Source of the DNA: Escherichia phage phT4A
Sequence record: NC_055712.1
Length of the DNA: 64,000 nt
Direction: 5' to 3' (one strand)
The translations under genes and the position numbers were made by a program. The notes under the pieces were generated by a model. The model was not told the origin of the DNA. It saw only the letters and a list, made by a program, of their open reading frames with translations, and did no database searches. Below are positions 1-50,654 of the stretch, piece after piece; the stretch's first letter is position 1; each line of letters begins with the position of its first letter.

Positions 1-379
1 AAAATCTAAATGTGGCGATCGTTTTCATCTGGGAGTTATCCAGGATATGCACAGCGAATGATTGCTTAGGATCATCCCACGCAACAGAGTTAAACTCGTT
101 GTAATCGTTTGTGCTCAACATCCATATGTAAATCCCAAGATACGATCTCATTTCCTCATCGACTACAAAGCGGATCATCAAAGGATCAAACTCAAAAGCC
201 GAACCAGGTACTTTACCTCGAACCATCATATTTGCAGGAATATCAACTGCTGGGAGGTTCATTGATGGTAGTGTAACCCCTTGAACTTGTAAAGTCAAAC
301 CTTTCATGTAACTGTTATCAGGAATATCAACCCGAAAGTTTGTAGGTGAGATTTGGTTTAAAATCATTTCTGTAGACAT
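1..379 (-). CDS. gp3-like tail completion / sheath stabilizer protein (partial; 3' end lies beyond window start)
   Basis: Minus-strand ORF with ATG at 379-377 (MSTEMILNQISPTNFRVDIPDNSYMKGLTLQ...), GGAG-type RBS just upstream, open to window edge; position left of gp2/gp4 matches T4 order 3-2-4-53-5. Identity by synteny only. Confidence 0.4.
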   Translation of the reverse strand, partial: MSTEMILNQISPTNFRVDIPDNSYMKGLTLQVQGVTLPSMNLPAVDIPANMMVRGKVPGSAFEFDPLMIRFVVDEEMRSYLGIYIWMLSTNDYNEFNSVAWDDPKQSFAVHILDNSQMKTIATFRF

Positions 380-458
380 AGGATCTCCTTTCCTCTATTT
401 AGCGGGGAACGGGATCAAAGCGGCCTGACGGGGTAATATAAAAATTTGAAGAAAATGC

Positions 459-487
459 TTGACCTTTTAAAATCTTTGATCTATAAT
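459..487 (+). promoter_or_regulatory. sigma70-type early promoter TTGACC-17-TATAAT
   Basis: TTGACC at 459-464, 17-nt spacer, TATAAT at 482-487, A-rich upstream; in AT-rich intergenic region upstream of the 749 gene. Confidence 0.55.
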
Positions 488-574
488 AATTATTAATTAA
501 AATTTTATCAAAAAGATCTAACAAGATCAAGTAAAATTTAATAAATAATTTATCAAAAATTTTTAGATCTGATC

Positions 575-603
575 TTGAATTCATAAATTTTATGATCTAT
601 AAT
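575..603 (+). promoter_or_regulatory. sigma70-type early promoter TTGAAT-17-TATAAT (tandem with 459-487)
   Basis: TTGAAT 575-580, 17-nt spacer, TATAAT 598-603; GATC immediately 5' of the -35; same module recurs at 35140-35168. Confidence 0.5.
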
Positions 604-748
604 ATATTAATATTTTATTTTATCATAAATTTTTATGAAGATCAATACTTAGATCTAATAAATTTTATGCTTTTTCTGAAAACTTTTCCTTTACCCCGTC
701 ACTAAATACTGGTACTATGTTCCCATATTGGAAATCAGGAAAAACAAA

Positions 749-1538
749 ATGACTCACTTGAAAAAATTCAAAGAATTTCTGACCGAAGGTAAAACCCTCG
801 CTCGTACCGTAGCACGTGGTCAACGCGCTAAAAACTTCCGATAAACATTCAATCGGTTTTCTTCACTTCAAACATGGTTCTGATTTCGAAGTTTTAGCAC
901 CGGATTCTCACGATCTGGCATACTTCGGTAAAAACATTGTACGTTTGAAAGGTATGACTACTGGTAAAGTTCAAGCGGCTTATGTCGATTGGGCTAAAGG
1001 TACTGTTTCTTTCTACAGTGGCAATCCGGATGATGATCTGGATTTCGACAAACCAGAAAAATTCAAAGCTGCTACTCTGTATGAAGAGGCGGAAGAAAAT
1101 CTGGATCTGTATAACCAGTTAGCAGAAGATTTCGAAATCGAGATCCCTATGGATGAAGCTCTGGTGAAAGGTAAAGTTTACAAACTCCCAAGCAACGATA
1201 TGCGTCTTCTGTACACTGGGCGTTCTAAAACTAAAGCAAGCGGTGAATATGCAGTGTTTACCGTAGTTGATGCTTCCGGCAAACCTCGCCTAGTATCTGG
1301 TAAAAAATTCACCCAAGAATATAAAGGCGATATGGTTTCTAAACTGGTTCTGGCTGAATCCGAAGATCTGAATGAAGCGGCTAAAGGCATTCGCGAAAAA
1401 GTTATTGCTGTGATGGTGAAACGCGGGTTTAACGAAAAAGATGCAGAAAAGATGGTTGACAAAAACCTGAAAGATGCTATGAAAGTTAGACCTGGTGCGA
1501 CCCCTGGCAAACTTGCAGAAATAGTTAGCACCCTGTAA
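749..1538 (+). CDS. hypothetical early protein; frame interrupted at A5 tract 830-834
   Basis: ATG 749 with AGGAAA RBS gives a 31-codon ORF stopping at 842-844; the long ORF (816..1538) continues in the +1 frame with no RBS of its own. Removing one A from 830-834 fuses them (~263 aa). Flanked by promoters and terminator. No recognisable family. Confidence 0.5.
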
Positions 1539-3517: not shown

Positions 3518-5283
3518 AATTAGGCGGAAATTTACACTCCCCTTTCTTTGATGGGGTGGTTGAAAACGTTGATGATCCGCGCGGGTTGGGCCGTGTTCAA
3601 GTCCGTGTATTTGGACAACACCCAGCCCAAAAACAAAAATCCGATGCAATCGGTGTTCCTGTTGAAGATTTACCCTGGATGATGCCTATTCAGGATATTA
3701 GAAGCGCTGCGATCTCTGGTGTGGGCTTCTCTCCAACTGGTATCACTCGCGGATCCTTTGTTGTTGGTTATTGGCGTGACAAATGGCACCAAGATGGTAT
3801 GATAATTGGTACTGTCGCTGGTGAATATGTCGAACAACCAGACACACAGAAAGGTTTTTGCGATCCTATGGGTGAATACCCTCGCTATGTTGGTAACGAT
3901 GTTAACTCCCTTGCTTTAGGTGGTTTGAAAGGCAAAGGATCATCAAGTGTCATCATTCGTGATTCAAACACAAGCATAGCAGTAAACCCAGACGATCGCC
4001 CACTGGATGAGATACCAGAAGATAACCGCCCTGATACGGGTGGATTTACGATCGAAAAGATGCTCAAGCAGGATGAGGGGATCCGTACACGATGGTATAC
4101 AGACAGTGAAGGATATCCGACAATCGGGATCGGGCATTTGCTTATCCGCGAAAAGACTCGCGACACTGCAAAAATTAACGCTGCGATCAGTAAAGCGGTA
4201 GGTCGAGAAGTAACAAACGGAACAATCACGGCAGAAGAGGTATCAACCTTATTTGCTCAAGATTTAGCCAAAGTAAGATCTGATATTCAGAGAACCGCTA
4301 ACGTCCGTGAAGTGTATGTGAACCTCAACCGTCCTCGTCAAATGGCGATCGAAAACATGTCGTTTCAAATGGGCGTCGGTGGTGTTGCTAAATTCACCAA
4401 TACCCTGAAAGCGATGAAAAATGAAGATTGGCAAGCGGCTTATAATGGTCTTCGAAATTCACTGTGGGCTAGTCAAACTCCAGGCCGTTCTTCTCGCGTG
4501 TCTAAAATAGTCCTCACGGGCAACCTTGAATCATATGGGGTACAAGTACCAGATCCGGAAGGGCGCTCTCTGAGTGCTGCTTACGCTGCGTATAACGGTG
4601 CTACATTGCTGGCGGCTAGTCCGGAAGATCCTTTTACTCCTGGTGATACCCGTGTGATGTTTGAAGAACCAGCATCATCTTATAATGCTGAATATCCGTA
4701 CAATATGGTTTTTGAATCGAGATCCGGACACATTCAGGAATTCGATGATACCCCAGGATACGAACGATATAACCGTGTTCACCCAGCAGGGAGTTACGAA
4801 GAAATTCGCCCGGATGGAACCCGCGTTGTTAAAATCGTAGGGGATGATTATCAAATTGTGATGCAGGGCCGGAAACTCAACGTTAAAGGCAACTTGCAGG
4901 TAGTTATTGAAGGCGACGCATTCATTTACAACATGGGTAACGTTCAACAAACGGTTGATGGTAACGTAACTGAGTTTGTTCGTGGCAACGTTCAACAAAC
5001 GGTTGAAGGTGAGTACGTTGGCCTGATTAAAGGCAATGCTGAACTAACTGTAAACAAAGATGCAACAGTTAACGTTGATCAGAATCTTACCGCAAATGTG
5101 AAACAGAATGCAACCGTGGCTGTAACAGAAGACGCAACGGTCACTGCAAAAAATGCGAAAATTGAGATTGAAGAAACGATGGATATCGGTGCTAAAGATA
5201 TCAATATCAAAGCAACGAATAACACGTTTATTGATTCTGGCGCATTAACAAAAATCACTGGCGGCACCGTCCAAGTGGGGTAA
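3514..5283 (+). CDS. gp5: gp5 baseplate hub subunit and tail lysozyme
   Basis: 589 aa; N-terminal OB region (GRVQVRVFGQHP), T4-lysozyme-like domain (GYPTIGIGHLL...), C-terminal beta-helix with VxGxxxxx octapeptide repeats. Confidence 0.9.
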   Translation: MKLGGNLHSPFFDGVVENVDDPRGLGRVQVRVFGQHPAQKQKSDAIGVPVEDLPWMMPIQDIRSAAISGVGFSPTGITRGSFVVGYWRDKWHQDGMIIGTVAGEYVEQPDTQKGFCDPMGEYPRYVGNDVNSLALGGLKGKGSSSVIIRDSNTSIAVNPDDRPLDEIPEDNRPDTGGFTIEKMLKQDEGIRTRWYTDSEGYPTIGIGHLLIREKTRDTAKINAAISKAVGREVTNGTITAEEVSTLFAQDLAKVRSDIQRTANVREVYVNLNRPRQMAIENMSFQMGVGGVAKFTNTLKAMKNEDWQAAYNGLRNSLWASQTPGRSSRVSKIVLTGNLESYGVQVPDPEGRSLSAAYAAYNGATLLAASPEDPFTPGDTRVMFEEPASSYNAEYPYNMVFESRSGHIQEFDDTPGYERYNRVHPAGSYEEIRPDGTRVVKIVGDDYQIVMQGRKLNVKGNLQVVIEGDAFIYNMGNVQQTVDGNVTEFVRGNVQQTVEGEYVGLIKGNAELTVNKDATVNVDQNLTANVKQNATVAVTEDATVTAKNAKIEIEETMDIGAKDINIKATNNTFIDSGALTKITGGTVQVG

Positions 5284-5287
5284 TTAA

Positions 5288-6910
5288 ATGATTATGGATT
5301 ATGAATCAATAATTGATGGAATTATGCAAAATTATCANNNNNNNNNNNNNNNNNNNNNNNNNNNNNNNNNNNNNNNNNNNNNNNNNNNNNNNNNNNNNNN
5401 NNNNNNNNNNNNNNNNNNNNNNNNNNNNNNNNNNNNNTGCAAATATACGGGTATGCAGGTTAACACCAACGCAGATACAAGCATTCCTCCTGTTCCTCCT
5501 GCAATGCCTTCCACTTATGGGGCATTACCGAGTGAATTAATCCGTGCTGATATTTCGTGCATTCCGGCAACTGTTGGTTTCGCATATACAAATATCAGTG
5601 ATGCTATGTTACAGGCATGGAACGAAACCCGTAATACGTTCAAGCTACAGTTTAACATGTTAACGGGTGCTGTACAGAATGGATTCGGGATCGCGACGAT
5701 GTTTGATGGTTTATCCGTATCGATGGAAGAAGTAATGGCGGGGGCGCTCGCATTGTCACAGCAAGCATGGCAAACTGCTATGAAAGTTTTCAGACAAGTG
5801 ATTAGCGCTGCATTTAACATTATCGGTGGTGCATGGGGATTGATTAATCAGTTCTTGCCTCAAGTAACCATCTTAGGTGTTGCGATCAACATTTACGATC
5901 TGGTGTTTGGTGATAATTCTGTTCAGACTTTGAAAGATGCGTTTAATGCAATCATCAAATCCGGACAACAAACATATGAAACCGTCATAAACGCAATATA
6001 CGGGGCCATAGGAAGCGCATACAATTACTCTGTGGAATATGTCAAAGCTGGCGCTCGCGACCTTGTGGATGCGTGTAGCGCGTTATTTGATTGGTGTTTA
6101 ACGATGTTCCAAAACGGTTGCGTTGCATTAATCGACTTATACGGTCGGATCATGCAAACATGGGCTATCCCTCCGGAAGTCCCAAACCCGTTATGGTCTG
6201 CGGTGCTGGCTATCCGTAACATCATGATGCAAATCAAACCACTTGATATAATTCTGGGCGGTAACTTCCCTGGATTCACTGCAATGGATTTGTATCAACA
6301 AGCACAGGAAAAAGTCAAGGCTTTTGTTGATGAGTCATACGAACAGATCCGAGGGCTTTATGAACAGGGGCAGGAACTTTACAAAACGTTAAAAAATCAG
6401 ATTTTCGAACGTGATACAATTCAGAGAAAATTCAACCAGTACTTAAACTGGATGTGGGGCGCTGTAACAGACGAAGCAACAGCGGCTTATCAATCTGCAT
6501 TGGATGCTGCAAACGCTGCTGTAGCTGCAACACAGGCCGCGTATGACGCTATACAGGAACAGATTGGATCTCTACAAGATGCAATGAAAGATACATACAG
6601 CATGGCGATGGAAGAATTAAAGAAATTGCCTTTGATGAGTACAATAAACGAGTTTTTAGGCTTCTGTGGTGTCGCATTTGACGATCTTCTCAAGTCATAT
6701 GAAAATGCGATTACTGGTGCTCAGTCTCTGTACAAAAATTTCATTGATAGTTCTCGCTCGTTTAAAGATCACTGCAAAGTAATCTATAACCAAATTTGTA
6801 CGTTGGCGTTGAGTAAAGTCACACAATATGTGAATAAATTGCTGTCTCTCATAGGATTAGCAATCAACTTTGGTTCGATTAGTGTATGTGTTCCAGTACT
6901 GAAATACTAA
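5288..6910 (+). CDS. hypothetical large helical protein with hydrophobic segments (ORF crosses 100-N gap; 5' part uncertain)
   Basis: Post-gap ORF 5438-6910 (~490 aa) is alpha-helical in composition with long hydrophobic stretches (e.g. ISAAFNIIGGAWGLINQFLPQVTILGVAINIY; C-terminal LLSLIGLAINFGSISVCVPVL) and an Ala/Gln-rich coiled-coil-like segment; no T4 counterpart recognised at this position. Confidence 0.4.
   Translation: MIMDYESIIDGIMQNYXXXXXXXXXXXXXXXXXXXXXXXXXXXXXXXXXXCKYTGMQVNTNADTSIPPVPPAMPSTYGALPSELIRADISCIPATVGFAYTNISDAMLQAWNETRNTFKLQFNMLTGAVQNGFGIATMFDGLSVSMEEVMAGALALSQQAWQTAMKVFRQVISAAFNIIGGAWGLINQFLPQVTILGVAINIYDLVFGDNSVQTLKDAFNAIIKSGQQTYETVINAIYGAIGSAYNYSVEYVKAGARDLVDACSALFDWCLTMFQNGCVALIDLYGRIMQTWAIPPEVPNPLWSAVLAIRNIMMQIKPLDIILGGNFPGFTAMDLYQQAQEKVKAFVDESYEQIRGLYEQGQELYKTLKNQIFERDTIQRKFNQYLNWMWGAVTDEATAAYQSALDAANAAVAATQAAYDAIQEQIGSLQDAMKDTYSMAMEELKKLPLMSTINEFLGFCGVAFDDLLKSYENAITGAQSLYKNFIDSSRSFKDHCKVIYNQICTLALSKVTQYVNKLLSLIGLAINFGSISVCVPVLKY
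5338..5437. other. assembly gap (100 N)
   Basis: Run of N. Confidence 0.95.
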
Positions 6911-22776: not shown

Positions 22777-25116
<2,340 letters not shown>

Positions 25117-25132
25117 TAGAGGAAACTTAATA

Positions 25133-27124
25133 ATGGCTTTAATCTCTCCAGGCATTGAAACTAAAGAAACATCGGTACAATCTACCGTTGTTCGAAATTC
25201 AACTGGTCGTGCTGCTATTGTTGGTAAATTTTCATGGGGGCCAGCTTACCAGATCCGTCAGATTTCTAACGAAGTCGAACTGGTAAACTATTTTGGCTCC
25301 CCAGACAATGACACCGCTGATTATTTCATGAACGCTGTAAACTTTTTACAGTTCGGTCAGGATCTGCGTGTTGTTCGTGTCGTCGATAAAGAAGCCGCAA
25401 AAAACGCAACCGCGATCTATAATCAGATCAAAACCACGATCACCGCTGCTGGTTCTAACTATGCAGTAGACGATCAGATCAAAGTTAAACACAATAACGT
25501 TGTTATTGAAGAAGATGGTGTTGTTACCAGCGTTGATGATCAGGGTAAAATCCTGTCTGTGTTCATTCCGAGCACTAAGATCATCGCACATGCTAAACAG
25601 GTTGGTGTATATCCGGATCTATCTAGTGGCTGGACTACAGAAATCATTTCCAGTTCTTCTGGTGTTTCTGCTACGATTACAATCGACGGCGTAGAAGTTG
25701 ATCCGGGTATTACTCTGCTCAACCTTGATACCGCAAAAGAAACTATTCAGGCAACTGCTTTCCAGGAACTTTGCACCAAATACCAGCTACCGTCTGTTAT
25801 TGCAATTTATCCTGGCGAAATGGGTAGCACCGTAACGGTTGAAATTCTGTCTAAAGCTGCATACGATTCTTCGGCTGTCATTAAGTCTTATCCTTCTGGT
25901 AAGTCTGGTAAAAACAGCGGTCGCAGTTCGATGAACTTTGGCCCTCAGAATGATAACCAATACGCGTTTATCGTTCGCCGTGGTGGTATTATCCAAGAAA
26001 CGTTTATCGTGTCAACCGCTAAGGGTGATAAAGATATCTACGGTTCAACGATCTACATGGATGATTTCTTTGCAAACGGTGGTTCGCAGTATCTGTATGG
26101 TACGTCCCTAAACTGGCCTGTCGGATTCTCCGGCGTTCTGGAACTGGGCGGCGGTACTTCTGCAAACTCCACTGTAGGCGCTGATGAACTCATGGCTGGT
26201 TGGGATATGTTCGCAGATCGTGAATCTCTGCATGTTCCTCTGCTGATTGCGGGTGCTTGTGCTGGCGAAACTGCCGAAATTTCGTCTACTGTACAGAAAC
26301 ACGCTGTGTCTATCGGTGAAACCCGTTCAGATTGCGTTGTATTCGTTTCTCCGCCGCGTTCTGCTCTGGTTAATATCCCACTGGCTCAGGCCGTTGATAA
26401 CCTCGTAGAATGGCGTACAGGCTACAAAATCGGTAATACTACCCCAGTTGATAATAACATGAACGTAAGTTCAAGTTATGCGTTCATCGACGGTAACTAT
26501 AAGTTCCAGTATGATAAATACAACGATGTTAACCGTTGGATCCCGCTCGCGGGTGATATGGCTGGCCTCTGTGTTTATACCGATCAGGTATCGCAACCGT
26601 GGATGTCTCCGGCTGGCTACAACCGTGGTCAACTGCGTAACTGCATCAAACTGGCTATCGAACCGACCAACGCGCATCGCGATTCTATGTACCAGGTACA
26701 GATTAACGCGGTTACTGGTTTCTCTGGTGGTGCCGGATACATTCTGTACGGTGATAAAACCGCAACGACTGTTCCAAGCCCGTTTGACCGTATCAACGTT
26801 CGTCGCTTGTTCAACATGATCAAGAAAGACATTGGCGATAACGCAAAATATAAACTGTTTGAGAATAACGATGATTTCACTCGTTCTTCCTTCCGTATGG
26901 ATGCAGGACAGTATATGTCTAACGTTCGCGCTCTGGGCGGTGTATACGATTACCGTGTGGTTTGTGACACTACGAACAACACGCCGGATGTTATTGATCG
27001 CAATGAGTTTATTGCATCAATCTACGTCAAACCAGCACGTTCTATCAACTACATCACACTGAACTTCGTAGCAACCTCAACTGGTGCGGATTTCGATGAG
27101 TTGATTGGATCAACGTCAGTATAA
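25133..27124 (+). CDS. gp18: gp18 tail sheath protein
   Basis: ATG at 25133 with GAGGAAA RBS (MALISPGIETKETSV...); 663 aa (T4 659 aa). Confidence 0.9.
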   Translation: MALISPGIETKETSVQSTVVRNSTGRAAIVGKFSWGPAYQIRQISNEVELVNYFGSPDNDTADYFMNAVNFLQFGQDLRVVRVVDKEAAKNATAIYNQIKTTITAAGSNYAVDDQIKVKHNNVVIEEDGVVTSVDDQGKILSVFIPSTKIIAHAKQVGVYPDLSSGWTTEIISSSSGVSATITIDGVEVDPGITLLNLDTAKETIQATAFQELCTKYQLPSVIAIYPGEMGSTVTVEILSKAAYDSSAVIKSYPSGKSGKNSGRSSMNFGPQNDNQYAFIVRRGGIIQETFIVSTAKGDKDIYGSTIYMDDFFANGGSQYLYGTSLNWPVGFSGVLELGGGTSANSTVGADELMAGWDMFADRESLHVPLLIAGACAGETAEISSTVQKHAVSIGETRSDCVVFVSPPRSALVNIPLAQAVDNLVEWRTGYKIGNTTPVDNNMNVSSSYAFIDGNYKFQYDKYNDVNRWIPLAGDMAGLCVYTDQVSQPWMSPAGYNRGQLRNCIKLAIEPTNAHRDSMYQVQINAVTGFSGGAGYILYGDKTATTVPSPFDRINVRRLFNMIKKDIGDNAKYKLFENNDDFTRSSFRMDAGQYMSNVRALGGVYDYRVVCDTTNNTPDVIDRNEFIASIYVKPARSINYITLNFVATSTGADFDELIGSTSV

Positions 27125-30626: not shown

Positions 30627-31415
30627 ATGCTTAAAGAACAACTGCTGGCGGAAGCCCAGAACCTGGATACTCCGGTCGAGTTAGACAGCATTTTCGAATC
30701 AGTTGAACTTTCTGATGACGTGAAAGCGACATTCACCACTGTATTCGAACAAGCTGTAAAAGCTGGCGCGGCAAAACTCGCTGAATCCCACATTACCCAG
30801 ATCGCGGAACGTTCCGACGAACTGGTCGAAGCTCAGGTAACTGAACGTGCCGCTGAAATCGAAACTAAGCTGTACGAAGATGCTGATAAATATTTTGCGC
30901 ACATTTCCGAAGAATGGCTGAAAGAAAACAAAGAAGCCGTTTCCCGTGACATCAAAGCAGATCTGTTTGAATCCCTGATCATGGGCCTCAAAGAAGTTCT
31001 GGTTGAACATAACGTTGTCATTCCGGAAGAACAGGTTGATGTAGTCGCCGAACTGGAAGACGAACTGACTGAGAATCAGCAGGAAGTTAAAACCCTGTTT
31101 GAAGCAAATCAGGAACTGACCAAAGAAATTTCAGAAATGAAACGCAATGCAGTAGTTTCAGAGAAAACTAAAGGTTTGACCGAATCTCAGGTCGAAAAAG
31201 TAGAATCTCTGATTGAAGGGCTGGAATATTCCGCAACCTTCGAAAATAAACTCAGCGCAATTGTTGAAATGGTAGCAACCAAAGCTGAAAAACCCGTTGA
31301 CGAGTCTGTAAATACTCCGCAAACGAAAGATGACTTTGTTCCGGTAGTCGAAAGTGTTCCGGCAGAGAAATCCAAGATCAATAAATATGTACAAGCGGCA
31401 AAAGCCCTTTCTTAA
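30627..31415 (+). CDS. gp22: gp22 prohead core scaffold protein
   Basis: 262 aa, acidic coiled-coil composition (T4 269 aa); synteny. Confidence 0.8.
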   Translation: MLKEQLLAEAQNLDTPVELDSIFESVELSDDVKATFTTVFEQAVKAGAAKLAESHITQIAERSDELVEAQVTERAAEIETKLYEDADKYFAHISEEWLKENKEAVSRDIKADLFESLIMGLKEVLVEHNVVIPEEQVDVVAELEDELTENQQEVKTLFEANQELTKEISEMKRNAVVSEKTKGLTESQVEKVESLIEGLEYSATFENKLSAIVEMVATKAEKPVDESVNTPQTKDDFVPVVESVPAEKSKINKYVQAAKALS

Positions 31416-31434
31416 TTTCAAAAGGTAAGAAACA

Positions 31435-33003
31435 ATGTCTAAGAAAAACGAATTGATGGAAAAATGGAACGATCTTCTGGAGTCTCAGGAAGGCTTACCG
31501 GATATCGCTACCAAATCCAAAAAACAACTGATTGCTGCCATTATGGAAGCACAGGAAAAAGACGCAGAAGTTGATCCGGTTTACCGCGACGAGAAAATCG
31601 TTGAATCCTTCGGTGGTTTCCTGGCGGAAGCTGAAATTGCTGGTGACCACGGTTACGACGCAACCAAAATCGCTTCTGGTAACTCAAGCGGTGCTATCAC
31701 CAACATCGGCCCTGCTGTAATCGGTATGGTTCGCCGTGCGATTCCTAACCTGATTGCGTTCGATATCTGCGGTGTTCAGCCTATGACTGGCCCTACTGGT
31801 CAGGTGTTCGCTCTCCGCGCAGTGTACGGCAAAGATCCGCTGGCTTCCGGTGCTAAAGAAGCATTCCATCCGATGTTCTCCCCGGATAGCATGTACTCCG
31901 GTCAGGGCGCGGCTCCGAGCAACGGCTTTAACGAACTGGCTTCCGGTACTGCTATCGCTGACGGCGCTATCGTGTTCCACGATTTCTCTGAAACTGGTCG
32001 TGTGTTCCTCCAGAACGTTTCTGGCTCTCCGGTTACTGTAACTGGTTCTACCGCCGATGCTCTGGATGCTGCTGTTATCGCCGAACAGGAAAAAGGTACT
32101 CTGGCTGAAATTTCTTACGGTATGGCTACCAGTGTAGCAGAACTGCAAGAACAGTTCAACGGTTCTACTGGCAACCCGTGGAACGAAATGGGCTTCCGTA
32201 TCGATAAGCAGGTTATCGAAGCACGTAGCCGCCAACTGAAAGCACAGTACTCTGTAGAACTGGCTCAGGATCTCCGCGCTGTTCACGGTATGGACGCTGA
32301 CGCCGAACTGTCTGCTATTCTGGCAACCGAAATCATGCTGGAAATCAACCGCGAAATCGTTGACATGATCAACTATACCGCACAGGTTGGTAAAACTGGT
32401 TTCACTCAGACCGTTGGCTCTAAAGCTGGTGCGTTTGACTTCCAGGATCCGATTGATGTTCGTGGCGCTCGTTGGGCTGGTGAAAGCTACAAAGCTCTGC
32501 TGATTCAGATCGACAAAGAAGCAAACGAAATCGCACGTCAAACTGGTCGTGGTGCTGGTAACTTCATCATCGCTTCCCGTAACGTGGTTTCCGCTCTGGC
32601 TCGTATCGATAGCGGTATCACTCCGGCAGGTCAAGGTCTCCAGAAGACTCTGAACGTTGACACCACTAAAGCAGTATTCGCTGGTGTTCTGGGTGGCGTG
32701 TACAAAGTATACATCGACCAGTATGCACGTGGTGATTACTTCACCGTGGGTTACAAAGGCGATAACGAAATGGATGCTGGTATCTACTACGCTCCGTATG
32801 TTGCGCTGACCCCGCTGCGTGGTTCTGATCCGAAGAACTTCCAGCCAGTAATGGGCTTCAAAACTCGTTACGGTGTAGGTATCAACCCGTTTGCGAACTC
32901 TCGCTCTCAGGCTCCGTCCGACCGTATCACTTCTGGTATGATTACCAAAGAAATGTTCGGTAAAAACGCATACTTCCGCAAGGTTTATGTGAAAGGCTTA
33001 TAA
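31435..33003 (+). CDS. gp23: gp23 major capsid protein
   Basis: 522 aa; long identical runs to T4 gp23 (IGPAVIGMVRRAIPNLIAFDICGVQPM, DAGIYYAPYVALTPLRGSDPKNFQPVMGFKTRYG). Confidence 0.97.
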   Translation: MSKKNELMEKWNDLLESQEGLPDIATKSKKQLIAAIMEAQEKDAEVDPVYRDEKIVESFGGFLAEAEIAGDHGYDATKIASGNSSGAITNIGPAVIGMVRRAIPNLIAFDICGVQPMTGPTGQVFALRAVYGKDPLASGAKEAFHPMFSPDSMYSGQGAAPSNGFNELASGTAIADGAIVFHDFSETGRVFLQNVSGSPVTVTGSTADALDAAVIAEQEKGTLAEISYGMATSVAELQEQFNGSTGNPWNEMGFRIDKQVIEARSRQLKAQYSVELAQDLRAVHGMDADAELSAILATEIMLEINREIVDMINYTAQVGKTGFTQTVGSKAGAFDFQDPIDVRGARWAGESYKALLIQIDKEANEIARQTGRGAGNFIIASRNVVSALARIDSGITPAGQGLQKTLNVDTTKAVFAGVLGGVYKVYIDQYARGDYFTVGYKGDNEMDAGIYYAPYVALTPLRGSDPKNFQPVMGFKTRYGVGINPFANSRSQAPSDRITSGMITKEMFGKNAYFRKVYVKGL

Positions 33004-33088: not shown

Positions 33089-33724
33089 ATGAAACATATT
33101 ATCTACAAAATAACAAATTTGGTTAATAATAAAATTTATGTTGGTGCTCATTCAACAGAAGACATCAACGATTCATACATGGGTTCAGGGGTGGCTATAA
33201 AGGCGGCTCAGAGGAAGTATGGTATCGATAAATTTATAAAAGAAATATTACATATTTTTGATACCCGTGAAGAAATGTATGAAAAAGAAAGAGAGATTGT
33301 TAATCTAGAATTTGTTAATAATCCACATACATATAATATGGGTATCGGTGGTGATGGTGGCCCTATGTTGGGTATGTTTCATTCAGAAGAGAAGAAACAA
33401 GAAATTTCCAAGATTACTAAAGAGAGAATGACAGATGAAGTAAAATCTCGTCTCTCTAAACTTAAAAAGGGTAAACCACAGTCCAAAGAATCCAACAGGA
33501 AGCGCTCAGAGACGTTAAAAGCTAAATATATGAATGGACGTATAGACAGAGAGTATAAACCTCTCACAGAAGCGCACAAGGCGAAATTAGGCCGTTCTGT
33601 ATCGATAGATGGAGTTGTATACTCATCCGGATCGGAGGCGGCAAAATCCCTTAGTATGTCCCACTCTGGTTTAAAATATCGGATTAATAGCGACAAATAC
33701 CCTACCTGGAAATTTGTTGCATAA
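33089..33724 (+). CDS. GIY-YIG homing endonuclease (SegD-like), free-standing between gp23 and gp24
   Basis: 211 aa; canonical IYKITNLVNNKIYVGAHS GIY-YIG motif, NUMOD3-like repeats, C-terminal DNA-binding segment; AT-rich; T4 has segD at the same position. Confidence 0.8.
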   Translation: MKHIIYKITNLVNNKIYVGAHSTEDINDSYMGSGVAIKAAQRKYGIDKFIKEILHIFDTREEMYEKEREIVNLEFVNNPHTYNMGIGGDGGPMLGMFHSEEKKQEISKITKERMTDEVKSRLSKLKKGKPQSKESNRKRSETLKAKYMNGRIDREYKPLTEAHKAKLGRSVSIDGVVYSSGSEAAKSLSMSHSGLKYRINSDKYPTWKFVA

Positions 33725-35046: not shown

Positions 35047-35080
35047 TAGTATAACCCAACGGGGATAATATTCAATAGGT

Positions 35081-35106
35081 GGAGTAGGGAAACTTACTCC
35101 ATCTTT
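35081..35106 (+). terminator. hairpin terminator after gp24
   Basis: GGAGTAgggaaactTACTCC followed by ATCTTTT. Confidence 0.45.
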
Positions 35107-35139
35107 TAATAATTATTATAATTAATATTAAATTAGATC

Positions 35140-35168
35140 TTGAATTTATAAATGATTTATGATAAAAT
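35140..35168 (+). promoter_or_regulatory. sigma70-type promoter TTGAAT-17-TAAAAT
   Basis: Same GATC-TTGAAT module as 575-603. Confidence 0.45.
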
Positions 35169-35224
35169 TTATTAATTATAATAATTATAGATCAAACAAT
35201 TTTTGAAATCAAGTAAAAATAAAT

Positions 35225-35253
35225 TTGATTTTATAAATTAGATCATGTATAAT
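35225..35253 (+). promoter_or_regulatory. sigma70-type promoter TTGATT-17-TATAAT
   Basis: TTGATT 35225-35230, 17-nt spacer containing GATC, TATAAT 35248-35253. Confidence 0.45.
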
Positions 35254-35292
35254 TATTCTTTTAATAATATATTATATTAGATCAATTTAAAT

Positions 35293-35320
35293 TTGACTAC
35301 TAATTAATATAGTATATTAT
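35293..35320 (+). promoter_or_regulatory. sigma70-type promoter TTGACT-16-TATTAT
   Basis: About 30 nt upstream of uvsY ATG. Confidence 0.4.
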
Positions 35321-35350
35321 AGATCAACTGGGTAAATTGGTGAGTATGTT

Positions 35351-35770
35351 ATGAGTTTGAAATTAGAAGATCTACAAAATGAACTTGAAAAGGATATGCT
35401 GATAGATCCCCTCAAGTTGCAATCAGAATCAGCGGATATCCCGAAGATTTGGGCTAAATGGCTTCGATACCATTCAAACGCTAAGAAAAAATTGATCCAA
35501 CTTCATGCGAAAAAAGAAGCTGATGTGAAGGATCGTATGTTGTACTACACCGGAAGGCATGACAAAGAAATGTGCGAAGTGGTGTATACTGGGACTACTG
35601 AAATTAAAATCGCGATCGCTGGGGATCCGAAAATTGTAGAAACCAACAAGCTGATCCAGTATTATGACATGGTGGTAGATTTCACCAGCAAAGCACTGGA
35701 TATCGTCAAAAACAAAGGATACTCTATCAAAAACATGTTAGAGATCCGTAAATTAGAAAGTGGTGCATAA
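35351..35770 (+). CDS. uvsY: UvsY recombination mediator protein
   Basis: 139 aa; LEDLQNELEKDMLIDPLKLQ...YYTGRHD pattern as T4 UvsY (137 aa). Confidence 0.85.
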   Translation: MSLKLEDLQNELEKDMLIDPLKLQSESADIPKIWAKWLRYHSNAKKKLIQLHAKKEADVKDRMLYYTGRHDKEMCEVVYTGTTEIKIAIAGDPKIVETNKLIQYYDMVVDFTSKALDIVKNKGYSIKNMLEIRKLESGA

Positions 35771-49517: not shown

Positions 49518-49806
49518 TATCCGCAAAAACGACAAAGGAACCGTGATTTTCTATGACAACATGCCCCTTGTAGCTCGCAAGGGGCTTTTTGCTAAAATCG
49601 CTGGGTATTCCTTTAAACTGGAAGAAGTCAACGACGAAACACTAAAAGAGATCGTAAGAATTGCCTTACAGTTAAGAGGTAAGAAAGACGAACAAAAAGC
49701 TATTGACATGATCAATAAATTGGGTGAAACTCAATGCTTCATAGTGAATCGTGGTTACAAGTACGATACCATTGCAAAATTTGAAAAAGGGCTTTGTGAA
49801 TTATGA
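49504..49806 (+). CDS. hypothetical protein
   Basis: 100 aa; GTG start with AGGAA RBS, overlaps nadV end. Confidence 0.4.
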   Translation: MPGFSIRKNDKGTVIFYDNMPLVARKGLFAKIAGYSFKLEEVNDETLKEIVRIALQLRGKKDEQKAIDMINKLGETQCFIVNRGYKYDTIAKFEKGLCEL

Positions 49807-50654
49807 GTTATTATGGTGTGATCCCATACACAGGAAACAAGCAAAAGCTACTTCCTGAACTGTTCAAATTATTTCCAGACAGAAACAGCTATATGCGATT
49901 CATCGACTGTTTTTGTGGTGGTTTGAGTGTGTCGCTAAACGTCCCTAAACCCGTTCTAAGCAACGATTACGATCGGACGTTGATTGATATGTATAAGCGC
50001 CTTCAAATGCTTCCTGACCTCTCTCCTGTGCGAGAATTGATTAAACAGCATGGTCTGGGTAAGAACGAGAAAGAAGCGTATCTCACATTTCGTGATGCGT
50101 ATAATAAGAACAAGGATCCTCTATGGCTCTACGTTCTGATCCTTCATTCGTTTAGTAATGTTAATCGAACCAACGATAAAGGCGATTTTAACGCCAATTT
50201 TGGTTGTAGAACGTTGAATGATTCTACCGTTAAACGGTTTGAACACTTCAAAAATAATGTTCGGGGGATTGAATTCTCTAGCGCATCGTTTAAGGATCTT
50301 GATATCTGTTTGAATGATTTTGTGTACTGCGATCCGCCGTACCTGATCACTGATGCAGTTTATAACAAGTTCTGGAACGAAGAACGCGAGCATGAATTAT
50401 ATGATTTTCTCGATAATTTAAACTCTGATGGTATCAAGTTTGGTTTATCAAACGTGACACATCATGCAGGAAAGCAAAATGATATCCTGATCGAGTGGAT
50501 GCAAAAATATAATGTGCATAACCTCGATAAAAAGTATCTGTTAGGCCAGCATACTGATTCTTACGAACAAAATAAAACGCAAGAAGTCTACGTGTGCAAC
50601 TACCAGAAACGCGACGTAAATACATACCCTGAAACACTGGATGACTTAATGTAA
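49803..50654 (+). CDS. dam: DNA adenine methyltransferase (Dam, GATC-specific)
   Basis: 283 aa; extensive similarity to T4 Dam (YTGNKQKLLPEL, FCGGLSVSLNV, DPPY motif VYCDPPYLIT). Confidence 0.9.
   Translation: MSYYGVIPYTGNKQKLLPELFKLFPDRNSYMRFIDCFCGGLSVSLNVPKPVLSNDYDRTLIDMYKRLQMLPDLSPVRELIKQHGLGKNEKEAYLTFRDAYNKNKDPLWLYVLILHSFSNVNRTNDKGDFNANFGCRTLNDSTVKRFEHFKNNVRGIEFSSASFKDLDICLNDFVYCDPPYLITDAVYNKFWNEEREHELYDFLDNLNSDGIKFGLSNVTHHAGKQNDILIEWMQKYNVHNLDKKYLLGQHTDSYEQNKTQEVYVCNYQKRDVNTYPETLDDLM

Follow-up and report, generated by a model that had tools for sequence, protein, structure and literature searches.

A GATC-dense promoter array in Escherichia phage phT4A belongs to a family of three paralogous cis-elements in Slopekvirus genomes

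In this article, I will discuss a short AT-rich array of promoters and GATC sites in Escherichia phage phT4A, which lies between the late gene 3 and a small open reading frame (ORF) in a stretch of 64,000 nucleotides of record NC_055712.1 (the window, in which positions are given unless another record is named). The array, here called R2, is one of three paralogous cis-elements (R1, R2 and R3) of Slopekvirus genomes. Slopekviruses are T4-like Straboviridae of about 175 kb, formerly the 'KP15virus' group, and by its sequence the window is from such a phage (KP15/KP27 group), its first 2.5 kb matching Klebsiella phages Kiwi_ER50 and KLB23 at 100% identity and KP27 at 99.5% identity or more. To my knowledge, almost nothing is known about the replication start sites of T4-like phages other than T4, and I know of no role for the Slopekvirus Dam gene beyond anti-restriction. 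Dam-sensitive promoters with a GATC in the -10 or -35 hexamer are an established kind, IS10 pIN and dnaA P2 being examples.

The origins of T4 itself are the closest described systems with which the array can be compared. On the T4 record, oriF lies at the start of uvsY and the uvsY transcript is its primer; oriE lies inside gene 5, where the primer RNA complements the gene 5 transcript and where the early antisense ORFs repEA and repEB are found; and oriG falls within gene 34, at a distance of 2.2 kb from where rnh starts. Both oriF and oriG consist of a promoter and an A+T-rich unwinding element where the transcript forms an R-loop, oriE requires an early promoter, and early synthesis begins in regions dominated by late genes, near strand switches (PMC3016281). 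These origins have no common sequence motif (PMC3016281), and for this reason the prediction of origins from sequence has been blocked. The RB43-type clade is without MotA and middle promoters (PMC1524935), so a transcription-primed origin there would have to use a sigma70 promoter, as is present here. Two further points of reference are E. coli oriC with its 11 SeqA-binding GATC sites (PMC5145175) and the promoter-early stem-loop (PeSL) cassettes that mediate shuffling in RB49 and phi1 (PMC2839356).

Three sister regions and their GATC sites

The original prediction, which a model had made from the bare sequence, treated the array as a single site, and in this respect it has to be revised, since the array is one member of a three-locus family. 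A composite genome of 173 kb was joined from KP27 1-100,057, the window and the KP27 tail. No more than three long AT-rich regions in it have a GC content of 21% or less, and the GATC clusters fall in exactly these:

R1: KP27 31,173-31,483, between rnh (minus strand) and gene 55 (plus strand); 9 GATC
R2: array at 423-699, between gene 3 and the ORF; 8 GATC
R3: 35,062-35,380, directly upstream of uvsY (ATG at 35351); 18% GC, 6 GATC

A BLAST search with R2 finds three places in most Slopekvirus records, and the R2 region is at least 95% identical in about 110 of these records. Short sequences tie the three regions together as well: TGATCTATAAT occurs five times in the composite genome, always within R1-R3, AGATCTGATC occurs twice, in R1 and in R2, and 9 of the 13 TAGATCT in the genome fall in the three regions. 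A scan of IMG/VR for TTTATGATCTATAAT was non-specific, its matches including at least two loci on the KP15 genome contig. Four homologous units of about 75-88 bp, each with two promoters or promoter-like sites face to face (two units in R2, one in R1 and one in R3), can be aligned with a mean column identity of 76%. The unit in R3 comprises 35140-35168 on the plus strand and 35212-35184 on the minus strand, and its GATC-TATAAT promoter faces away from uvsY, antisense to late gene 24 (gp24), in a direction where no gene is encoded. R1-R3 also contain the least stable 150-bp stretches of duplex in the genome, at -145, -147 and -153 kcal/mol, the next stretch being at -168.5 and the genome mean at -198.8 kcal/mol (sd 8.1).

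As to the GATC sites of R2, the original prediction had placed eight of them at 478, 515, 525, 566, 571, 594, 640 and 652, and these positions are exact, as are the three AGATCT palindromes (514-519, 565-570 and 651-656). Its repeated TAGATC(A/T) units are only partly borne out: two copies are exact, at 564 and 650, and the others read AAGATC(T/A), TTGATCT, CTGATCT or ATGATCT. Given the composition of 468-659 (A84 C15 G11 T82), 0.16 GATC would be expected against the eight observed, a 50-fold excess, and none of 20,000 shuffles of this segment gave more than three. GATC sites account for 8 of its 11 G and 8 of its 15 C, and each of the other 23 orderings of the same four letters occurs 0-1 times. 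Eight GATC per 180 bp is the maximum for the window and the second highest value in the composite genome, where the genome-wide rate of 6.45 GATC per kb leads to a Poisson expectation of 0.03 such intervals per genome. The original prediction was to be refuted by a GATC frequency no higher than in other intergenic regions of the genome, and this outcome did not occur: 13 other AT-rich segments carry 0-1 GATC each and only the two sister regions are similarly dense. With 0.16 sites expected and 0-1 seen in other AT-rich DNA, chance or a compositional artefact can be rejected. The same applies to the idea that GATC belongs to a general early-promoter consensus, since the promoters outside R1 and R2 are of the stem-loop type and nearly devoid of GATC: ordinary early promoters of this genome are of the PeSL type (TTGCATTCGTGCAGGGGCTTTGTTATATT) with a GC-rich stem-loop in the spacer and almost never a GATC, and of the 36 promoters annotated in KP27 only five contain GATC, four of them in R1 or R2.

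R2 is a quasi-palindrome of 276 bp (423-699) with 19% GC, bounded by 42-nt inverted repeats (426-467 versus 660-701, core TGACGGGGTAA / TTACCCCGTCA) that are 74% complementary over the 42 nt with an 11-nt perfect GC-rich core according to a repeat search, and that make the outer stem when R2 is folded as single-stranded DNA (ssDNA; z = -6.5 versus shuffles). An ACGGGG(T/A)TAAT motif is also present at the left edge of R1 and R3. From left to right, the features of R2 are:

426..467: left inverted-repeat arm (TGACGGGGTAA...), overlapping the upstream A-tract and the -35 of P1
459..487, plus strand: promoter P1, TTGACC-17-TATAAT, 11 of 12 consensus matches, directed toward the ORF at 749
502..530, minus strand: leftward promoter-like site facing P1, TTGATC-17-TAAAAT with TG, 9 of 12 matches, its -35 formed with GATC 525-528
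575..603, plus strand: promoter P2, TTGAAT-17-TATAAT, 10 of 12 matches, annotated in KP27
617..645, minus strand: leftward promoter-like site facing P2, TTGATC-17-TAAAAT with TG, 9 of 12 matches, its -35 formed with GATC 640-643
660..701: right inverted-repeat arm (...TTACCCCGTCA), from the repeat search and the ssDNA fold

The two embedded sigma70-type promoters of the original prediction are thus recovered by a consensus scan, and the GenBank record of KP27 annotates both; their predicted hexamers are close to TTGACA/TATAAT with a 17-bp spacer, they are oriented toward an ORF that bears a ribosome-binding site (RBS), and they are directed into DNA of 14% GC. P2 repeats the P1 unit in tandem, 116 bp further downstream (direct repeats spaced 115-116), and R2 holds two such homologous units, arranged in tandem with a 115-116-bp period, each a quasi-palindrome of the form CTTGAnn-N17-TATAAT-N13-14-(ATTTTA)-N17-GATCAAG in which the rightward promoter is near consensus and the facing leftward site is weaker and promoter-like. 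Within each face-to-face pair (459-487 versus 530-502 and 575-603 versus 645-617), the predicted starts nearly coincide. The GATC at 571-574 stands immediately 5' of the -35 of P2, as predicted, and what had been missed is that a GATC also abuts the -10 of both P1 (478-481) and P2 (594-597), within TGATCTATAAT. Five of the eight GATC are therefore in fixed register with promoter hexamers, namely 478 and 594 (-10), 571 (-35 of P2) and 525 and 640 (leftward -35), and the other three (515, 566 and 652) are the AGATCT palindromes between or after the units. A register of this kind, repeated in four homologous units, would be expected of a methylation-sensitive promoter. The number of units is variable among relatives: Squirrel (Squirrel_ER27) and KpCCP1 carry a 28-bp tandem duplication, GATCTAACAAGATCAAGTAAAATTTAAT, that adds two GATC, and R2_1 has an extra promoter unit of about 116 bp beside an assembly N gap.

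Several other identities were considered for the array and discarded. There is no TATAAATA in R2, and a T4 late promoter gave no match in the array; the KP27 record labels P1 a 'putative middle promoter', but the single TGCTTGA overlaps the -35 of P1 at the wrong spacing from the -10, and the clade is without MotA; and a packaging site of the phage P1 pac type does not fit either, with TGATC(A/G) hexamers absent from R2 and R3 and three TGATCA in R1 only. An Rfam search of 300-1700 gave no match to a structured RNA at E values up to 1.

Some observations on GATC and on the assemblies stand beside these findings. GATC is over-represented across the window as a whole (439 sites versus 239 ± 12.5 in dinucleotide-preserving shuffles), which is unusual for a phage, and the second-densest cluster in the window (25400-25620, 7 in 180 bp, 41% GC) lies inside a coding ORF of 686 amino acids (25064-27124), has neither AT-rich context nor promoter features, and holds the sole GATCTATAAT outside R1-R3. 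Several public assemblies start, end or break in R2 (LC768470/71, LC768475, LC768479 and MZ612130), the phiKp_15 assembly consists of two contigs (LC768477/LC768478) with junctions in R2 (about 581) and R3 (about 35232), and a 33.5-kb contig of a metagenomic relative (Logan contig L027) begins inside the equivalent of R2; these breaks are likely due to collapsed repeats or to lost coverage where the GC content is 14-18%.

The counterpart in Pseudotevenvirus and the genes around the array

In the sister genus Pseudotevenvirus (RB43, Miller, leB and GAP161), the ORF downstream of R2, a member of the protein family phrog_7322, keeps its place between genes 3 and 2 with 73-81% amino-acid identity, while the region upstream of it is unrelated to the Slopekvirus R2, with 33% GC and 1-3 GATC. 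This upstream region is itself a three-copy module, present at three places in each of the 30 records listed of 66 matching, and in Cronobacter phage leB these places (between rnh and gene 55, between gene 3 and the ORF, and upstream of uvsY) are the same three as in Slopekvirus. The module of about 200 bp (in leB at L008:1254-1509, L019:627-891 and L022:4842-5163) has GC-rich inverted repeats, GAGCGAAGCGA ... TCGCTTCGCTC, around an AT-rich core that in leB contains TATAAATA on the minus strand, and at their left edge the three Pseudotevenvirus copies all keep AGATC without variation. A module of this type also precedes the ORF in metagenomic relatives and in Pantoea phage Phynn, and Buttiauxella phage GuL6 has one in front of uvsY. 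Intermediate forms were not found among the relatives in IMG/VR and the protein databases, all of which are of either the Slopekvirus or the Pseudotevenvirus type. In RB43, leB, Phynn and the metagenomic relatives, the promoter of the ORF reads TTGATC-17-TATCAT, so that a GATC-containing -35 is kept. Because the positions are conserved, the sequence has been replaced and the copies within a genome resemble each other, the pattern of R1-R3 and of the Pseudotevenvirus modules points to a cis-acting function common to the three positions that goes beyond three independent promoters.

In the window, the array has the following neighbours:

377-379, minus strand: start codon of gene 3 (late; tail-tube terminator), with coding sequence and RBS annotated in KLB23
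394..401, minus strand: late-promoter-like CTAAATAG, just upstream of the gene 3 RBS, read from the sequence
749..1538, plus strand: ORF downstream of P1/P2, 262 amino acids in relatives, phrog_7322, AGGA RBS
about 1545-1566, both strands: bidirectional intrinsic terminator ahead of gene 2, annotated in KP27, hairpin visible in the sequence

Beyond the terminator come late genes 2 and 4 (minus strand) and then 53 and 5 (plus strand), and the ORF at 749 is antisense to the late genes on either side of it, 3 and 2, a layout in which the GATC site heads a small early-type cassette antisense within a late-gene block. RB43 and its relatives have TATAAATA at the place equivalent to the late-promoter-like signal at 394-401, and since this signal of gene 3 lies outside the AT-rich array, the expression of gene 3 would be independent of the array. 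The ORF itself is frameshifted in the window, where AAAAA at 829-833 replaces the AAAA of KLB23 and KP27 and the +1 frameshift divides the ORF of 262 amino acids into 728-844 and 816-1538; the extra A may truly disrupt the ORF in this isolate, or it may be a sequencing error in a homopolymer. The phrog_7322 family is confined to the RB43/KP15 clade and has no assigned function, and its product has no Pfam match and no relative among PDB sequences. An AlphaFold model (pLDDT 70) consists of tandem small beta-barrels and helices, for which Foldseek against PDB and BFVD returned no informative match and no DNA-binding fold.

Further along the window, a run of 99 N (5339-5437) lies just past gene 5 within an AT-rich stretch (5269-5481), and a free-standing ORF of 211 amino acids (33089-33724), flanked by short AT-rich segments without GATC, stands between the putative major capsid gene 23 and gene 24 and by its sequence looks like a predicted GIY-YIG homing endonuclease.

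Promoter, origin or both

Methylation of the array would require an enzyme, and the original prediction had named one, the Dam gene at 49803-50654 (plus strand), for which Pfam returns PF02086, the D12 N6-adenine methyltransferase family, with E = 1.9e-34; its product would act in trans on the GATC sites of the array. Virion DNA of KP15, a close relative, is almost wholly degraded by DpnI (PMC3620542), which implies that GATC is methylated in the KP15 virion. A comparison of Klebsiella phage CPRSB (OM971649) with the window over 16.9 kb places 27 of 149 substitutions (18%) in GATC, a sequence that makes up 3.3% of the bases compared, and this is a 5.5-fold enrichment. G>A or C>T accounts for 22 of these 27 changes, and within the array CPRSB differs at five of the eight GATC; the CPRSB record is error-rich, with many genes split into pieces, and the changes in GATC probably reflect basecalling error at modified sites rather than real divergence.

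The reading that I favour, tentatively and at somewhat less than an even chance, is that R1-R3 are promoter-plus-unwinding modules, that is, transcription-primed origins of the T4 type with Dam-coupled promoters. Host RNA polymerase would bind the modules on infecting, fully Dam-methylated DNA, P1 and P2 would transcribe the downstream early ORF, and the transcripts, beginning in the most easily melted DNA of the genome, might also open and prime it, as at T4 oriF and oriE. The first replication pass would leave the clustered GATC hemimethylated and could thereby alter the binding of polymerase or SeqA, and the module would then be reset or silenced until the phage Dam re-methylates it. Early promoter activity, an effect of methylation, R-loop or origin function and an involvement of SeqA are each what I infer here. 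The positions of R1-R3 suggest replication start sites, and the origin-like element that the original prediction had listed among its possibilities gains indirect support from the existence of three sister elements, from their least stable duplexes, from the location of R3 at the oriF position and from the Pseudotevenvirus module at the same places.

The likeness to T4 is greatest at oriF, where R3 occupies exactly the same uvsY-promoter position. As at oriF and oriG, the promoters of R1-R3 are aimed into very AT-rich, easily melted DNA, and as with the T4 origins in general, the three regions are in or beside late-gene regions and strand switches (PMC3016281). The promoters at oriF and oriG are, however, MotA-dependent middle promoters, whereas those of R1-R3 follow the sigma70 consensus. 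The oriF region of T4 (L020:850-890), which separates gene 25 from uvsY, has three tandem CATCCAATAA and a fourth with one mismatch, CAACCAATAA, just in front of uvsY, and no GATC cluster. R2 resembles oriE in that a predicted early sigma70-type transcript and a small early ORF run antisense within the 3-2-4-53-5 late block, and in that its promoters would likewise need no phage transcription factor; it differs in having no 12-nt iterons and in the ORF, phrog_7322 being unrelated to RepEA and RepEB by name and size and showing no DNA-binding fold.

With oriC and the P1 plasmid origin, R2 shares a cluster of eight GATC in 178 bp of AT-rich DNA, comparable to oriC, and the availability of a Dam enzyme, but an origin built like oriC or P1 oriR can be set aside, as R1-R3 contain no DnaA box (up to one mismatch), no IHF consensus and no iterons. 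The 13-mers of the oriC type, GATCTnTTnTTTT (up to two mismatches), number 1-2 per region against 143 genome-wide, which is not above chance. IS10 pIN/pOUT is similar in having GATC at promoter hexamers and opposed, overlapping promoters, and different in that the GATC of R2 abuts the -10 instead of lying inside it, that there are four units at three loci, and that a transposase context is missing.

A number of points weigh against modules that serve as Dam-coupled origins. All three regions are upstream of genes that need a promoter (gene 55/rnh, the ORF and uvsY), so promoter function alone explains their positions, and the T4 origins have no common motif (PMC3016281), whereas R1-R3 are paralogous and do have one. 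T4 oriF is without a GATC cluster and the Pseudotevenvirus modules have 2-3 GATC each, from which it follows that a dense array is not a general requirement. Away from oriF the positional matches are poor: R1 corresponds to oriG only loosely, being beside rnh, 2.2 kb off and next to a different gene, and R2 is between genes 3 and 2 rather than in gene 5, offset from oriE by 2.6-4.5 kb. Cumulative GC skew has one minimum at R1 (31.5 kb) and another 2.6 kb away from R2 (103.2 kb), but these coincide with transcription-strand switches and were thus rejected as independent evidence for origins. DNA of KP27 was reported to be resistant to DpnI and most other enzymes despite 1130 GATC sites and a Dam gene (PMC3620542), and so methylation status may differ among isolates. 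Finally, the frameshift in the ORF behind P1 and P2 would mean that this isolate tolerates the loss of the ORF, unless the extra base is a sequencing error.

The strongest rival takes the first of these objections at its word and sees in R1-R3 nothing other than special strong early promoters for gene 55/rnh, the phrog_7322 ORF and uvsY, with no role in replication, their AT-rich DNA acting as UP elements and their GATC either conferring Dam sensitivity, to tell parental, fully methylated DNA from newly replicated DNA, or having no function; I regard this as a serious possibility, if on balance a doubtful one. It accommodates the near-consensus hexamers oriented toward genes, the GATC in register with them and the GATC-containing -35 that the ORF promoter retains in the wider clade, and it calls on a class of Dam-sensitive promoters that is already established. 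It does not explain why each unit is paired face to face, why the best GATC-TATAAT promoter of R3 is directed away from uvsY into antisense of gene 24, or why exactly three co-evolving sites should stay in place across two genera whose sequences there are unrelated, when some 40 other promoters are of a different type.

Improbable to my mind is a protein-binding array, in which (T)AGATC(T/A) and TTTATCA motifs in curved AT-rich DNA would bind SeqA, H-NS or a phage regulator and the promoters would be regulated by occupancy and not by methylation as such. The concentration of TAGATCT in R1-R3, the three AGATCT palindromes of R2, the invariant AGATC at the edge of the Pseudotevenvirus copies and a GATC density about that of E. 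coli oriC (PMC5145175) are all in keeping with such an array, whereas the spacing of the GATC is irregular (37, 10, 41, 5, 23, 46 and 12 bp in R2, about 40-54 bp in R3) without helical phasing, their flanks vary, and no candidate binding protein was found, the adjacent ORF having given no DNA-binding fold.

Still less probable is a mobile or recombination cassette, MITE-like or PeSL-like, with the 42-nt inverted repeats as its boundaries, which recombination or gene conversion would have carried to three sites; the excess of GATC would then come from a single founder unit that contained GATC by chance and was amplified. With the PeSL cassettes of RB49 and phi1, R2 shares a self-contained early cassette of promoter, ORFan and terminator set among conserved genes. 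The bounding repeats, the 116-bp tandem duplication, the variable copy number (Squirrel, KpCCP1 and R2_1), the shuffling by PeSL cassettes in RB49 and phi1 (PMC2839356) and the wholesale replacement of the regulatory region between genera with retention of the ORF would all suit this rival, but the spacers of P1 and P2 are AT-rich with no GC-rich stem-loop in or beside them, which is the defining feature of PeSL, both inverted-repeat arms occur in R2 only, about 110 Slopekvirus records are at least 95% identical at R2, and the rival explains neither the three AGATCT sites outside the units nor why both genera have kept these three positions and no others.

What the three elements may mean

Promoters P1 and P2 are already annotated in KP27, but the architecture of GATC in register with hexamers, the three-locus family and its Pseudotevenvirus counterpart appear to be undescribed in the literature searched, in which I also found no description of GATC arrays or origins in Slopekvirus or Pseudotevenvirus. 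There is a practical side to the finding, in that R1-R3 break short-read assemblies and probably collect GATC-specific basecalling errors in an error-rich record, and Slopekviruses are widely used as therapy phages against Klebsiella. For the biology of these phages, GATC locked to promoter hexamers offers a possible regulatory function for the phage Dam, and an element of three copies with fixed positions and changing sequence, one of them at the site of T4 oriF, provides concrete, clonable origin candidates.

Taken further, the proposal of transcription-primed, Dam-coupled origins could extend to the whole MotA-less RB43/KP15 clade, in which a genus-specific and concertedly evolving cis-module would mark origins at three fixed positions and the GATC of Slopekvirus would couple the firing of origin and promoter to Dam state, such that parental DNA, being fully methylated, would fire and daughter DNA, being hemimethylated, would be switched or sequestered. 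I consider this wider version unlikely as it stands, but if it were true, the modules would be the first sequence-defined origin family in relatives of T4 and a phage-encoded counterpart of oriC sequestration.

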